From the NCBI GenBank assembly GCA_964508215.1, contig CAZDSI010000014.1:11902-21098 (forward strand): DNA of 9,197 nt. The letters are read 5' to 3'. The notes under the pieces are model-generated. The model was not told the DNA's origin. It worked only from the letters and a program-made list of their open reading frames with translations, and did not search any database. This stretch comes from an uncultured Opitutales bacterium. GTDB taxonomy: Bacteria > Verrucomicrobiota > Verrucomicrobiia > Opitutales > UBA9783. The position numbers and the translations under genes are program-made. Shown piece after piece: positions 1,984 through 9,112 of this stretch (the first letter of the stretch is position 1; each line of letters begins with the position of its first letter).

Positions 1984-2355
1984 ATGAAAAAGTTAATTAG
2001 TCTTATTGGATATACGTTAGCCTGCAATCTCGCGCTACTTAGAGCCGATGGAAACGAAAGCTTCAAGGCACAAAAGGAACATTTACAGCAAGATCGGGCC
2101 AAATTACACGAAAAATTGAAGGAACGCGAACAGCTCAGTAGTGAAATTAAAACCCTTCGAAAGGAAATGCATAGCGAAAGAGAAGCTTTAAAAAATGAGC
2201 GTAAAGAATGGATAAAAAAGCATCGCGAAGAAAAAGAAGCTGAAAGAGAAAAACGTAAAGAAGAACGCGAACAAATTAGGAAAAATTTTCACGAAGGCGA
2301 AAAGGCATCTAACGCAACTTCCTCCAATACAACAAGTTCTAAAAGCGAAAAATAA
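1984..2355 (+). CDS. Secreted, highly charged (K/E/R-rich) helical protein of unknown function
   Basis: A strong SD and a strong terminator bracket the ORF. The N-terminus MKKLISLIGYTLACNLALLRA|DG looks like a Sec signal peptide (basic n-region, ~15 hydrophobic residues, A at -1). The mature ~100 aa are dominated by K/E/R heptad or ER/K-like sequence (REEKEAEREKRKEEREQIRK) and end in an S/T/N-rich tail (ASNATSSNTTSSKSEK). I recognise no family. Confidence 0.7.
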   Translation: MKKLISLIGYTLACNLALLRADGNESFKAQKEHLQQDRAKLHEKLKEREQLSSEIKTLRKEMHSEREALKNERKEWIKKHREEKEAEREKRKEEREQIRKNFHEGEKASNATSSNTTSSKSEK

Positions 2356-2716: not shown

Positions 2717-4042
2717 ATGAAAATAAAAAATCTTTTCACCATAACCACTTGTTTAGTCGGAAGCTTTTCGACTATTTTACGGGCTTTGCCACCGGCTACT
2801 TTATCCCAAGATGCCCACTTAAAGTTTTCTGAAAAAGCAGGAACAAATATTCAAACACTTAGTGGTCTGTTTGTGTTTGCCAAAGATACCCCCCTTAGAA
2901 ATAACGATATAACCACTGCATTTACAGAGCTTGGCTATCAAATCACAACCCAAGATTTCATAGAAGCCATGTCTCCTATTTTTGATGAAGAGTCAGCGGC
3001 AGCCCCAAACCGCAAGACAAACGATTTGCTTTTTAAAAGTAAACCGTTTGGATTGTTTTCAGTACCCGCATGCACTCCTATGCTTCTTCCACAAGATGCA
3101 AAAACATGGTATACAGAAGTGCTAAAAATGCTTATCCTTAAAATACAACTTAATTTGAGTCTGCGCGGAGAAAATCAAGGATTGCAAACTCAGTTAGCAA
3201 TATACAAAAACTATCTGGGTCTGGCCTATTATTTTACCGGTGAAAAAGAAAAAGCATGCCAACAATGGGTAGAGTCTGTTTTAGAGGGTACCGCAATCGC
3301 AAGCGATAGTTTGGCTGTTTTTATATACGGTAAAGGAAGCCACACTCGATCTAATACTAAAGCACAAGCTTTAATATTTCATGCTTTAACGCTAAAATTA
3401 GGTGGAGTTAGGTTTTTCGAAAATTCAACCAAAGGTATTCTCTACTGCCTTGATGTAGATGTAAAACAAAATTTACAAGGTACTCTTTCGACAATACAAG
3501 ATAAGATACAAGGTGGAAACGTGTTAGGTGCAATTCTATCCTATTATACGGACACCTACGGAGAAAGACTGCTTGAGGCGGCCTCAAAAGAGCAATATTT
3601 CCAACAAATGGTTGTCGACTTGAATACTCTTGAATTCCGAGTCGCCAATTTCCTAGAAAAGTGGCAAGGAATAATGCGGCATCTTGATGAGACCTCGGGC
3701 GATCATTCAGAAACCACATCGCTTTCAAGTGGACACCAATCACTCATAAGTTACGGTTCAGGACTTTTGCCAAGAGAATCTCTTTTGCAAGAACCCTCTT
3801 TGGAGCCCGTAAAGCCTTTAGTAATTCATGATTTCAGCTCTCTACCACCACTTCACCAAAGAACAACGTTTACGGTACCACAAAAAAGCGGTTCAATTAA
3901 CCCGGTGGTAGGTGAGCATAACCAGCAAGAAGTGCACATAGATGTGCCCGAAGAAGCAACATTGAAGACGCCGCTTTTACCTCAACAGAAAGAGGAAAAA
4001 CGCAGCGGTTTTTTCAGTTGTTGCGGTTGTTGTGTTCAGTAA
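2717..4042 (+). CDS. Orphan 441-aa protein: N-terminal hydrophobic leader, ~300-aa folded region, ~115-aa disordered tail, C-terminal Cys cluster/CaaX-like box
   Basis: A long uninterrupted ORF in AT-rich DNA with its own terminator-like hairpin. The leader is MKIKNLFTITTCLVGSFSTILRA|LPP. One TPR-like stretch is present (YKNYLGLAYYFTGEKEKACQQW). Residues ~324-430 are S/P/Q/E/T-rich low complexity. The C-terminus is KEEKRSGFFSCCGCCVQ-stop. No SD precedes ATG 2717. I recognise no family. Confidence 0.75.
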   Translation: MKIKNLFTITTCLVGSFSTILRALPPATLSQDAHLKFSEKAGTNIQTLSGLFVFAKDTPLRNNDITTAFTELGYQITTQDFIEAMSPIFDEESAAAPNRKTNDLLFKSKPFGLFSVPACTPMLLPQDAKTWYTEVLKMLILKIQLNLSLRGENQGLQTQLAIYKNYLGLAYYFTGEKEKACQQWVESVLEGTAIASDSLAVFIYGKGSHTRSNTKAQALIFHALTLKLGGVRFFENSTKGILYCLDVDVKQNLQGTLSTIQDKIQGGNVLGAILSYYTDTYGERLLEAASKEQYFQQMVVDLNTLEFRVANFLEKWQGIMRHLDETSGDHSETTSLSSGHQSLISYGSGLLPRESLLQEPSLEPVKPLVIHDFSSLPPLHQRTTFTVPQKSGSINPVVGEHNQQEVHIDVPEEATLKTPLLPQQKEEKRSGFFSCCGCCVQ

Positions 4043-4065: not shown

Positions 4066-4103
4066 TAGGCCAACGACACTTACGCGTTGGCCTAATTAGT
4101 TTA
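4066..4103 (+). terminator. Candidate terminator of the 441-aa gene
   Basis: 10-bp GC-rich stem TAGGCCAACG (4066-4075) / CGTTGGCCTA (4085-4094) with a 9-nt loop, 24 nt after the stop. The tail ATTAGTTTAT is a weak U-tract. Confidence 0.5.
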
Positions 4104-4277: not shown

Positions 4278-4363
<86 letters not shown>

Positions 4364-5457: not shown

Positions 5458-6651
5458 TCACAAGAAAAGACCCAATGCAAACAAGTACCTTGTTAATTTC
5501 TCGTCGTTCGAATGAAGCGTGTCGAATAAGTTCAATATTTCAATTTCTCCCACAGTCCCCTCAAGAAAAATACGGTTCTTGGATAAAAATAGGAGATATT
5601 CTTTGAAGGAACTTTTATATTTGGCGGCATTTTCAGCAAATAGTTTTCTTTCCTCCGCGGAAAGTGATCCTTGGCGAAAAAGAGCCTCGAGTTTAGTAAA
5701 AAGCTTGATGGAATCTGTTGCCTTTGTTACAGCCCAAACAACCTTTTCTTTAAGGCCGGGAATAGTGTGAAATAGATATTGTTGCACATATTTTTTATAG
5801 TGCAGGCTATCCCTATAAGTTTTTAAGTCTTTTAGCGCTTCACTTCTTGCAAAAAAACGACTTGTTTCGGCATTTGGGATCCAAGAAAAGGTAAACAATT
5901 CCTCTGCCAACATGAAAGACTTTGCTTCGGCTGTTATAACGGCATCCGCATATGCTTGAGGGGTCATAAACGAATGAATCTCTGTTGTTACATTCATATC
6001 CTCATTGAGCATATTGGCTAACTCAAAACAAAAACCCATTCTTATTCTTTCACGGAATTCGGCCGCACCAAAGCCAGGACATTGCTCATGAAATGGATCA
6101 ATAAATATTTCCGTCGATGTGCAAGAAGCACTAGAATCAATGCTATCAGTAAAAATTAACTGTTTTAACCCCAAGCTTCTGGCCTTATTAACGGCCCTAC
6201 GTAACCGCGCATTATTTGCAATATCTTCTCGAATCCATTGAGTGATGGCTTCAGGTGTAATTGTTTCGGGCGAAAATTTACACAAATTTTTAAAATTAAA
6301 AATAATTTCAATACCCTTACCTTCTAATAAATTGGCAATCTCAAAGAAACCATTTGAAAAGGCAAAATCAAATGGAGTTTGTCCCTTTTGGTCTCTAAGA
6401 AAAGGTTTCGCACCCTGAGCTACCAAGAACCTTACCGCATCTTCCTGACCAAACATTGCTGCAAAATGAAGTGCGCTTTGTCCAAATGCGCTGACCTGAT
6501 GAATGAACTCACTATTGCTTTGGTAAAGTTTTGCTAATTCAGCAATATTGCCTTCCATAGCATATTCACGAAACAAACGCGCTTCGTCAGCACGCATAAA
6601 ATTCCCTATAGATGATATTATAGTTACGAGTAATAACGCCTTAGTTTTCAT
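5458..6651 (-). CDS. Secreted ankyrin-repeat protein with an uncharacterised ~280-aa C-terminal domain
   Basis: 397-aa ORF. The leader is MKTKALLLVTIISSIGNFMRA|DEA. Residues ~30-113 (nt ~6313-6564) hold a capping repeat plus two clear ANK repeats: GQSALHFAAMFGQEDAVRFLVAQGAKPFLRDQKGQTPFDFAFSNGFFEIANLLEGKG, matching the consensus G-TPLH-AA--G---V--LL--GA. I do not recognise the remainder. Confidence 0.85.
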   Translation of the reverse strand: MKTKALLLVTIISSIGNFMRADEARLFREYAMEGNIAELAKLYQSNSEFIHQVSAFGQSALHFAAMFGQEDAVRFLVAQGAKPFLRDQKGQTPFDFAFSNGFFEIANLLEGKGIEIIFNFKNLCKFSPETITPEAITQWIREDIANNARLRRAVNKARSLGLKQLIFTDSIDSSASCTSTEIFIDPFHEQCPGFGAAEFRERIRMGFCFELANMLNEDMNVTTEIHSFMTPQAYADAVITAEAKSFMLAEELFTFSWIPNAETSRFFARSEALKDLKTYRDSLHYKKYVQQYLFHTIPGLKEKVVWAVTKATDSIKLFTKLEALFRQGSLSAEERKLFAENAAKYKSSFKEYLLFLSKNRIFLEGTVGEIEILNLFDTLHSNDEKLTRYLFALGLFL

Positions 6652-8149: not shown

Positions 8150-8230
8150 GAATCGATAAAATGCGGAGCATTTTTGAGGCTTGATAAATTCGAGGATCTT
8201 CGTTCTAGTTTTATAATTAATCGGCAATTT

Positions 8231-9112
8231 ATGAGTAAATTAACTTTAGTTTTGATGGCAGCCGGCAAAGGAAGCCGCTATGGCGGCCTAAAACAACTGG
8301 AAAAATTCGGGCCTCAAGAAGCAACGTTAGCCGAGTACGCCTTATGGGATGCTATAAGCGCTGGATTTGATTCGTTTATCGTCGTTGTCAACGAAAACAC
8401 CCAGCCTTATTTTGAACAATTATTTCGGCGCATGGGCGTTGAAAAAAAAGCCCAATGTGTTTTGCAAACTATGACAAATGTTCCCCTACCCCATTTTGAG
8501 CTTCCAAAGAGTCGTCAAAAACCATGGGGGACCGGTCATGCATTATGGTGTGCAGCTCGCTATATTCATTCACCGTTTGTTATTATAAATGCGGATGACT
8601 TTTATGGTCCTGAAGCCTATAACCAGGCTGCGAAGTTTTTGGAGCAAGCGAACGGGTTTGCCTTGATTGGTTACAACTTATCCAATACCTTATCTCCTTA
8701 TGGCAGTGTTTCTCGCGCGGTGTGTTCGGTAGACTCCAACGGTATTTTGCAAGACCTCAAAGAGTACAAATCAATTGAAGAAAAATCCGGCGAGCTTATA
8801 GCGGGAACCCAATATTTTAAAGGCGATGAAACCGTATCTGTAAATTTTTGGGCCCTACAACCAAGCTTTCTAGCGGCGCTTGAAGTGGAGCTACAAAAAC
8901 TTCTAACAGAATACCAAAACTCCGAGACGGCGGAATGCTACTTGCCCGAAGTTATTATTAGGGGCGCACAAAGATTTGGTATAAAAATTCATGTATTGCC
9001 AGCAAAAGATCAATGGCTTGGAGTGACTTACCCTCAAGATAAAGATTGGGTCAACCGAAGACTCTACGAACTAACGGCTCAAAAATTATACCCTTCGATA
9101 CTGTGGTCATAA
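8231..9112 (+). CDS. Sugar-phosphate nucleotidyltransferase (NDP-sugar pyrophosphorylase-like, GT-A fold); substrate unknown
   Basis: The N-terminal signature LVLMAAGKGSRYGGLKQL matches the nucleotidyltransferase G-x-G-(T/S)-R...K loop. KPWGTGHA resembles the (E/K)xxGTGHA motif of GlmU-type enzymes, and IINADDFYG supplies the acidic metal site. ATG 8231 puts the glycine-rich loop 7-12 residues from the N-terminus, as is usual. The TTG at 8174 in the ORF track adds 19 non-conserved-looking residues. Confidence 0.85.
   Translation: MSKLTLVLMAAGKGSRYGGLKQLEKFGPQEATLAEYALWDAISAGFDSFIVVVNENTQPYFEQLFRRMGVEKKAQCVLQTMTNVPLPHFELPKSRQKPWGTGHALWCAARYIHSPFVIINADDFYGPEAYNQAAKFLEQANGFALIGYNLSNTLSPYGSVSRAVCSVDSNGILQDLKEYKSIEEKSGELIAGTQYFKGDETVSVNFWALQPSFLAALEVELQKLLTEYQNSETAECYLPEVIIRGAQRFGIKIHVLPAKDQWLGVTYPQDKDWVNRRLYELTAQKLYPSILWS

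Follow-up and report, generated by a model that had tools for sequence, protein, structure and literature searches.

The orphan gene at positions 2717 to 4042 of a 9,197-nucleotide stretch of DNA from an uncultured Opitutales bacterium (contig CAZDSI010000014.1 of GenBank assembly GCA_964508215.1; the whole stretch is hereafter the window) encodes a protein of 441 residues that ends in a cluster of cysteines, the last four residues of which, CCVQ, form a CaaX box identical to that of a lipid-anchored eukaryotic protein. We consider this protein (hereafter the target) a plausible yet unproven candidate for an effector that is lipidated by a eukaryotic host and thereby tethered to membranes, a reading to which we assign a probability of about 40%. 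The evidence that points to it is suggestive and consists of the rarity of the cluster together with the exact placement of the CaaX box, two matches to eukaryotic proteins, a layout of linker plus anchor, and an ankyrin-repeat protein encoded nearby. The analysis shows the motif itself, how rare it is, that it is identical to eukaryotic signals, and that the gene and its stop codon are genuine. An earlier note, made from the letters of this DNA, had already proposed a host-delivered, lipidated effector. At the level of the motif (the CCVQ box, its CCaX form, and a CCGCCVQ tail shared with a GTPase) that proposal stands, while the lack of a homologue and of a demonstrated host, and a Sec-type leader, speak against it. 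The features of the target, all on the forward strand, are the following.

2717..4042, + strand: orphan target open reading frame (ORF), ATG start, 441 residues, TAA stop at 4040-4042
2717..2785, + strand: Sec-type signal-peptide-like N-terminus, residues 1-23, MKIKNLFTITTCLVGSFSTILRA, a putative leader recognized by hydropathy
2786..3691, + strand: domain of ~300 residues, residues 24-325, predicted to be mainly helical (DSSP of AlphaFold models)
3692..3988, + strand: S/P/Q/E/T/G-rich linker, residues 326-424 (composition and models)
3989..4003, + strand: mixed-charge patch KEEKR, residues 425-429 (read from the sequence)
4019..4039, + strand: cysteine cluster C435-C436-G-C438-C439-V-Q441, a CaaX/CCaX box CCVQ with two upstream cysteines (read from the sequence)
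4066..4094, + strand: terminator-like hairpin, 10-bp perfect stem, 9-nt loop, then an A/U-rich stretch (inverted-repeat search)

The terminal cysteine cluster and its gene

The ORF list and the raw sequence agree on the C-terminus of the target, ...KEEKRSGFFSCCGCCVQ-stop, which can also be read as ...PLLPQQKEEKRSGFFSCCGCCVQ followed by TAA. The coordinates that had been given for this tail are correct, C435 starting at nt 4019 and C438 falling exactly at position -4. Both the gene and its stop codon look genuine, as judged by a coding signal that extends into the tail and by the terminator-like hairpin. When codon usage is modelled on the five housekeeping genes that the window contains, frame 0 outscores frames 1 and 2 in 21/21 sliding windows of 40 codons, linker and tail included; the frame-0 score of the linker is the weakest of the ORF (about 0), yet far above those of the other two frames. 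The GC content at the three codon positions of the target (GC1/2/3 = 0.50/0.39/0.33) resembles that of its housekeeping neighbours, and its composition therefore gives no hint of recent import. The hairpin, which begins 24 nt past the stop and folds as RNA with -17.4 kcal/mol (z = -4.5, with 0/200 shuffles as stable), supports a genuine gene end at 4042. Another terminator match, within the coding tail (4001-4025), was taken as a false positive, the real hairpin being that at 4066-4094.

It is very improbable that the target is no protein-coding gene, or that its C-terminus is misassembled or frameshifted. Such an error would fit an orphan without homologue, whose structural models are of low confidence and upstream of which no obvious Shine-Dalgarno sequence is seen. 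However, the other genes of the window are likewise without a clear Shine-Dalgarno sequence, and 441 codons stay open in DNA of 38.6% GC, with frame 0 the best throughout and codon-position GC like that of the housekeeping genes, in an ORF that opens with a signal-peptide-like segment and is closed off by a hairpin beyond its stop.

The last seven residues hold four of the eight cysteines of the target. As an empirical background, we used 893 control ORFs of at least 200 residues from 87 fetched loci. A cysteine at position -4 occurs in 13 of these 893 (1.5%), which is about equal to the 1.1% frequency of cysteine, and a loosely CaaX-like tetrapeptide ends just one (1/893). Three or more cysteines within the last 10 residues were found in none (0/893), and by simple arithmetic at least four cysteines in seven positions are expected, at 1.1% cysteine, with a frequency of about 5e-7 per protein. 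A bare cysteine at -4 is hence unremarkable, while the cluster of the target is a strong compositional outlier.

The tail matches eukaryotic lipid-anchor signals in two ways. First, CCVQ, given in the earlier note as the CaaX box of the human phosphatase PTP4A2/PRL-2, is indeed listed as such, annotated as farnesyl or geranylgeranyl (PMC7674641). As read from the sequence, C438-C-V-Q441-stop thus places a cysteine exactly at -4 within a tetrapeptide known as a prenylated box. The accompanying rule that X = Q directs farnesylation holds for PDE6A (CCIQ) and RAP2A (CNIQ), but fails for RAP2C (CVVQ), which is geranylgeranylated; since boxes with X = Q are mixed in this respect, the type of isoprenoid is uncertain for CCVQ (PMC7674641). 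Boxes of the CCaX kind can moreover take a prenyl group on the first cysteine and palmitate on the second, as in Cdc42-palm, the brain form of Cdc42 being a CCaX protein with a CCIF box (PMC9868626).

Second, we scanned the metagenome collection of the Joint Genome Institute (JGI) for DNA that codes for CCGCCVQ and then a TAA or TGA stop, and obtained 17 stretches. Eleven of them occupy frames that stay open for just 7-66 codons and are best taken for matches by chance. The remaining six (L090, L095, L098, L100, L102 and L088, the last cut by the contig end) all encode one and the same protein of 222 residues ending ...GKRERNEAAASDQGGCCGCCVQ, so that the only long complete ORF found with this exact tail is a lipid-anchored eukaryotic protein. 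It is a Rho-family GTPase (Pfam Ras, 1.3e-38), with plant Rac-like/ROP proteins and Rac1 as best matches in the PDB (about 5e-41). Two of its sites are as follows.

L090, 1815-1838: Rac/ROP-like GTPase, ending ...DQGGCCGCCVQ
L095, 6269-7033, - strand: the same Rac/ROP-like GTPase

The contigs that encode this GTPase have 55-57% GC, and L095 looks gene-sparse; their source is probably an intron-poor eukaryote. The target and the GTPase use different synonymous codons for their tails, each following the GC content of its own genome, and the similarity is limited to seven residues, which argues for mimicry or convergence rather than transfer. As far as the sequence allows it to be judged, the overall layout of the target also resembles that of Ras/Rho GTPase tails, with a disordered linker, a mixed-charge patch, and a cysteine cluster at the extreme C-terminus.

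Architecture and orphan status of the target

The N-terminus of the target, MKIKNLFTITTCLVGSFSTILRA, combines a basic n-region with a hydrophobic core (Kyte-Doolittle 1.61 across 15 residues). The most hydrophobic 19-residue windows of the protein lie there (1.53 at residue 6), and the AlphaFold model has a helix at residues 6-22. This is the layout of a Sec signal peptide, as the earlier note had itself cautioned. Outside the N-terminus, the sole top hydropathy window is at residue 185, and there is no hydrophobic segment near the C-terminus. Processing as a lipoprotein (Lgt/LspA) was considered and rejected, because the lipobox [LVI][ASTVI][GAS]C is not found: C12 is preceded by I-T-T and by only ~6 hydrophobic residues.

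The N-terminal region of ~300 residues is predicted to be mostly helical, DSSP assigning mainly helices in single-sequence AlphaFold models whose predicted local distance difference test (pLDDT) is 32 for the full protein and 36 for residues 30-326. A pLDDT of only 32-36 is too low for fold matches to be meaningful. The idea of Sel1-like or tetratricopeptide repeats, prompted by ...YLGLAYYFTGEKEKACQQW..., was dropped, as no Pfam family appeared up to E 10. Beyond about residue 326, both models are without secondary structure, at low confidence, and the region that had been described as an S/P/Q/E/T-rich linker is just that, with 55% S/T/P/Q/E/G and just 3 aromatics over residues 326-430; this linker is probably disordered. 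By contrast, the description of KEEKR as a small basic patch has to be withdrawn, since its net charge is only +1, which makes it a patch of mixed charge and no true polybasic region.

The target is a strict orphan. Pfam and NCBIfam give no family for it at E 0.01, and a PDB sequence search gives nothing below E 0.6. No protein tyrosine phosphatase or small-GTPase domain is matched in Pfam, NCBIfam or PDB, the coincidence with such proteins being confined to the last 4-7 residues. In a word-index search of 5.8 billion protein clusters, the target matches itself alone. A full HMMER scan of 1.84 billion representatives returned two marginal matches (E 1.5e-5 and 6.4e-4), both of which are spurious: they are long tandem-repeat proteins, one of them polyubiquitin-like, each scored through 5 repeated stretches, and the better-scoring one (P0004) aligns with the target at 24% identity and 16% gaps. 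No homologue was found among the 87 fetched loci, and there is no paralogue within the window. Of the fetched loci, the 80 obtained by a synteny scan anchored on the aldolase gene come from many phyla and none carries other genes of the window, while the relatives of the FtsZ-like gene (L081, L082) and of the Nif3-like gene (L083-L087) sit in differing neighbourhoods with no homologue of the target. Scanning genome contigs with the Nif3 protein returned no locus.

If fast-evolving, such an orphan could have acquired its last codons by slippage or duplication of a GTT/TGT-rich stretch, leaving a cluster without selected function, an accident that we hold to be rather unlikely. In its favour, the tail DNA, AGTTGTTGCGGTTGTTGTGTTCAG, carries GTTGTTG twice, the target has no relatives in either of the two large protein collections, and the linker gives the weakest codon-usage signal of the ORF. 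However, the repeat amounts to merely 7 nt in two copies and the repeat search reports no direct repeat there, while frame, stop and terminator are all clean. Moreover, a complete and correctly placed CaaX box with flanking cysteines, as opposed to mere cysteine-richness, is a very small target for such an accident to hit.

Genomic neighbourhood and organism

The neighbours assigned by Pfam and NCBIfam include ribosome recycling factor, a class I fructose-bisphosphate aldolase, a Nif3-like protein and a nucleotidyltransferase, and no secretion system genes lie within the 9.2-kb window. Other features of the window are listed below.

592-1731, + strand: divergent FtsZ/tubulin-family protein, 379 residues (Pfam/NCBIfam)
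1984..2355, + strand: upstream orphan, 123 residues, with a Sec-like leader (…LLRA/DGN) and a K/E-rich coiled-coil-like body; a single-member cluster with no Pfam family
2377-2413: perfect 17-bp stem with a 3-nt loop, AAATATAGCTCATCGAT AAA ATCGATGAGCTATATTT, just downstream of the 123-residue orphan in the AT-richest part of the window (GC 0.30)
4278-4363: tRNA-Leu(UAA)
5458..6651, - strand: ankyrin-repeat protein, 397 residues, with a Sec-like leader (…FMRA/DEA), repeats at residues ~30-118, then ~280 residues (Pfam)
8174-9112, + strand: nucleotidyltransferase ORF, listed from a TTG start

Three non-homologous ORFs of the window, the 123-residue orphan (1984-2055), the target (2717-2785) and the ankyrin-repeat protein (6583-6651, - strand), begin in the same manner, an n-region rich in K being followed by a hydrophobic core of ~15 residues with [LM]RA at its end. 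The leaders end LLRA/DGN in the coiled-coil orphan, ILRA/LPP in the target and FMRA/DEA in the ankyrin-repeat protein, in which hydropathy reaches 1.96 at residue 5. Judged by these three sequences, this may be an organism-specific signal-peptide style, and with such a common leader the eukaryote-like proteins encoded here seem to be exported via Sec.

Ordinary export offers another explanation of the tail. The target might be an envelope or extracellular protein that never enters a host cytosol, in which CCGCC binds a thiophilic metal (Cu(I), Zn or Hg) or forms inter- or intramolecular disulfides, its likeness to a CaaX box being a coincidence. The Sec-like leader and its occurrence in the same style on two neighbouring ORFs fit this explanation, as does the finding that a bare cysteine at -4 is at chance level in bacterial ORFs (1.5%). 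Bacteria also provide precedents for metal-binding vicinal cysteines at C-termini and for CxCC motifs, in MerA, which ends ...CCAG, and in CopG, which has CxCC. However, Pfam and NCBIfam detect neither a metal-binding or redox family in the target nor metal-handling partner genes in the window. A 100-residue disordered tether with a terminal cysteine cluster is the layout of a eukaryotic lipid anchor, unlike that of known bacterial metal sites, and the sole long complete ORF with this heptapeptide in the metagenome scan is a Rho GTPase. We therefore regard a metal- or disulfide-related role of the cluster as unlikely on balance, and prefer lipidation by a host.

The ankyrin-repeat protein, which the earlier note had taken as a sign of a host-associated lifestyle, is real (Pfam Ank_4 1e-13, Ank_2 8e-11) and lies 1.4 kb from the target. 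Its C-terminal 277 residues have no significant match, the best Pfam hit being at E 0.04, and its weak NCBIfam similarity to Legionella AnkY/AnkQ stems from the repeats alone. In the relative L087 (3947-6509), whose Nif3 is 55% identical, 740 bp separate the genes for class I aldolase and Nif3, both of which are read from one strand, whereas in the window the ankyrin gene comes between them and their strands differ, which places the ankyrin gene at a rearranged spot. The target and the 123-residue orphan sit between the FtsZ-like gene and tRNA-Leu, a possible island position, though codon-position GC bears no foreign signature. The stem-loop at 2377-2413 is probably a bidirectional terminator.

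The FtsZ-like protein scores 126 bits against a cut-off of 295 for the FtsZ equivalog, with no FtsZ_C domain recorded. Its only relatives, at 42-45% identity, are four proteins from JGI metagenomes; next come genuine FtsZ proteins (some from Opitutaceae) at 22-26%. This reflects either fast-evolving cell division in the lineage or a distinct FtsZ-like family. Two start codons in the window deserve revision. The tRNA-Leu(UAA) ends 8 nt ahead of the listed Nif3-like ATG, and since Nif3 relatives are shorter (251 residues vs 262 here) and cover about 93% of the query, the true start is probably a later codon. In the nucleotidyltransferase, the Pfam match starts at residue 26, and the real start seems to be an internal Met (MSKLTLVLMAAGKGSRYGG).

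As for the organism, those Nif3 relatives that carry names all belong to the class Opitutae of the Verrucomicrobiota (Puniceicoccales, Opitutales), none of those listed exceeding 55% identity, and the best aldolase match, at 78% identity, is from an Opitutales metagenome-assembled genome. By these sequence comparisons, the organism is a divergent Opitutae/Puniceicoccales-like verrucomicrobium, and no chlamydia or Legionella-like pathogen. At 38.6%, the GC content of the window is below the 42-55% of the six contigs fetched via the FtsZ-like and Nif3 relatives, its intergenic spacers measure 215-362 bp, and two orphan proteins that appear to be of exported type are encoded together with the ankyrin-repeat protein within 5 kb. 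Low GC, long spacers, a divergent FtsZ and orphan or ankyrin neighbours are compatible with host restriction, none of them being decisive. Intimate association with eukaryotes does occur in the group, for the Puniceicoccaceae include both the epixenosomes of Euplotidium and 'Ca. Pinguicoccus supinus', which lies in the cytoplasm of a ciliate with no symbiosome around it (PMC7679464). For a bacterium that is naked in the host cytosol, exported proteins would directly meet the prenyltransferases of the host.

Proposed lipidation by a host and comparison with known systems

Host contact, delivery, lipidation and an activity of the helical domain are what we infer for the target. It would exit the bacterium by Sec and a second step, such as a type II secretion system (T2SS), vesicles or lysis; alternatively, the hydrophobic N-terminus might be no cleaved leader at all. 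Once in the cytosol of a eukaryotic host, it would be prenylated at C438 of CCVQ by the farnesyl- or geranylgeranyl-transferase of the host. Host DHHC acyltransferases could then palmitoylate C435/C436 once the last three residues (CVQ) have been removed, or else, as in CCaX proteins, C439 without cleavage of CVQ. The long flexible linker would tether the helical domain of ~300 residues to the host membrane.

That hosts prenylate bacterial CaaX proteins was recognized in 2005-2010, and to our knowledge such hijacking has so far been demonstrated in only a handful of proteobacterial pathogens (Legionella, Salmonella). The mechanism is an established one (PMC2916131, PMC4951486), with GtgE and PelC/PelE as newer examples (2026). 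Like AnkB and PelA-J of Legionella and SifA and GtgE of Salmonella, the target is a bacterial protein with a cysteine at -4 in a CaaX-compatible C-terminal box; like SifA, it has extra cysteines that could be S-acylated; and like bacterial CaaX effectors in general, it shows no homology to eukaryotic prenylated proteins, the tail alone being the mimic. In contrast to AnkB, PelA-J, SifA and GtgE, which belong to Proteobacteria with known hosts and are injected by type III or type IV secretion systems (T3SS or T4SS), the target is verrucomicrobial and its N-terminus is Sec-like. In sequence it resembles none of these effectors, and it is known here from its sequence alone.

The comparison with eukaryotic CCaX proteins yields a similar picture. 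The terminal tetrapeptide of the target is that of PTP4A2 and its terminal heptapeptide that of the metagenomic Rac/ROP-like GTPase, and both of these proteins likewise have a flexible region with K/R/E residues ahead of the cysteine cluster. However, there is no homology beyond the last 7 residues and, unlike eukaryotic CCaX genes, that of the target lies amid bacterial genes (RRF, FtsZ-like, tRNA-Leu, Nif3).

C-terminal signals on proteins with a Sec-type leader are also found in purely bacterial sorting systems, such as PEP-CTERM/exosortase, MYXO-CTERM, GlyGly-CTERM, LPXTG and the C-terminal domain (CTD) of the type IX secretion system (T9SS), and MYXO-CTERM signals contain a conserved cysteine. 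In all of these systems, the motif precedes either a transmembrane helix with a basic cluster or a folded domain, whereas the target ends three residues past C438. We excluded a bacterial C-terminal sorting signal because no transmembrane segment follows the motif; nor is there an NCBIfam match.

Four points weigh against host lipidation: the Sec leader, the lack of comparative support, a lifestyle without demonstrated host, and the low complexity of the tail DNA. The first leaves the delivery step unexplained and fits a periplasmic or extracellular role equally, and those CaaX effectors that are proven carry no Sec leader and are delivered by a T3SS or T4SS (PMC4951486, PMC2916131). On analogy with its relative 'Ca. 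Pinguicoccus supinus', however, such a leader would not be fatal if the bacterium were naked in the host cytosol. As for the second, an orphan sequence gives no sign that selection maintains the tail. As for the third, most Opitutae are free-living, and the ankyrin neighbour is weak evidence of lifestyle, having a Sec-like leader of its own and ~280 unmatched residues. Concerning the fourth, slippage in the GTTGTTG...GTTGTTG stretch may have helped to create the cysteine cluster. In addition, KEEKR, to judge by its residues, is no real polybasic second signal. The most specific form of the proposal, in which an Opitutae symbiont exports, via a Sec-type leader and not by injection, a mimic of the hypervariable-region anchor of a Rho GTPase that its host both farnesylates and palmitoylates, is doubtful and clearly less probable than host lipidation as such.

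At present, the target is thus a well-formed candidate, an orphan protein with no demonstrated mechanism. If its most specific form is true, no CaaX-mimic effector would have been known before from outside Proteobacteria, nor one with a Sec-type export route. Verification would mean that the hijacking of prenylation evolved independently in the Planctomycetes-Verrucomicrobia-Chlamydiae (PVC) group and that a Sec-exported protein can use this trick, and it would offer a handle on the host interaction of an uncultured organism.

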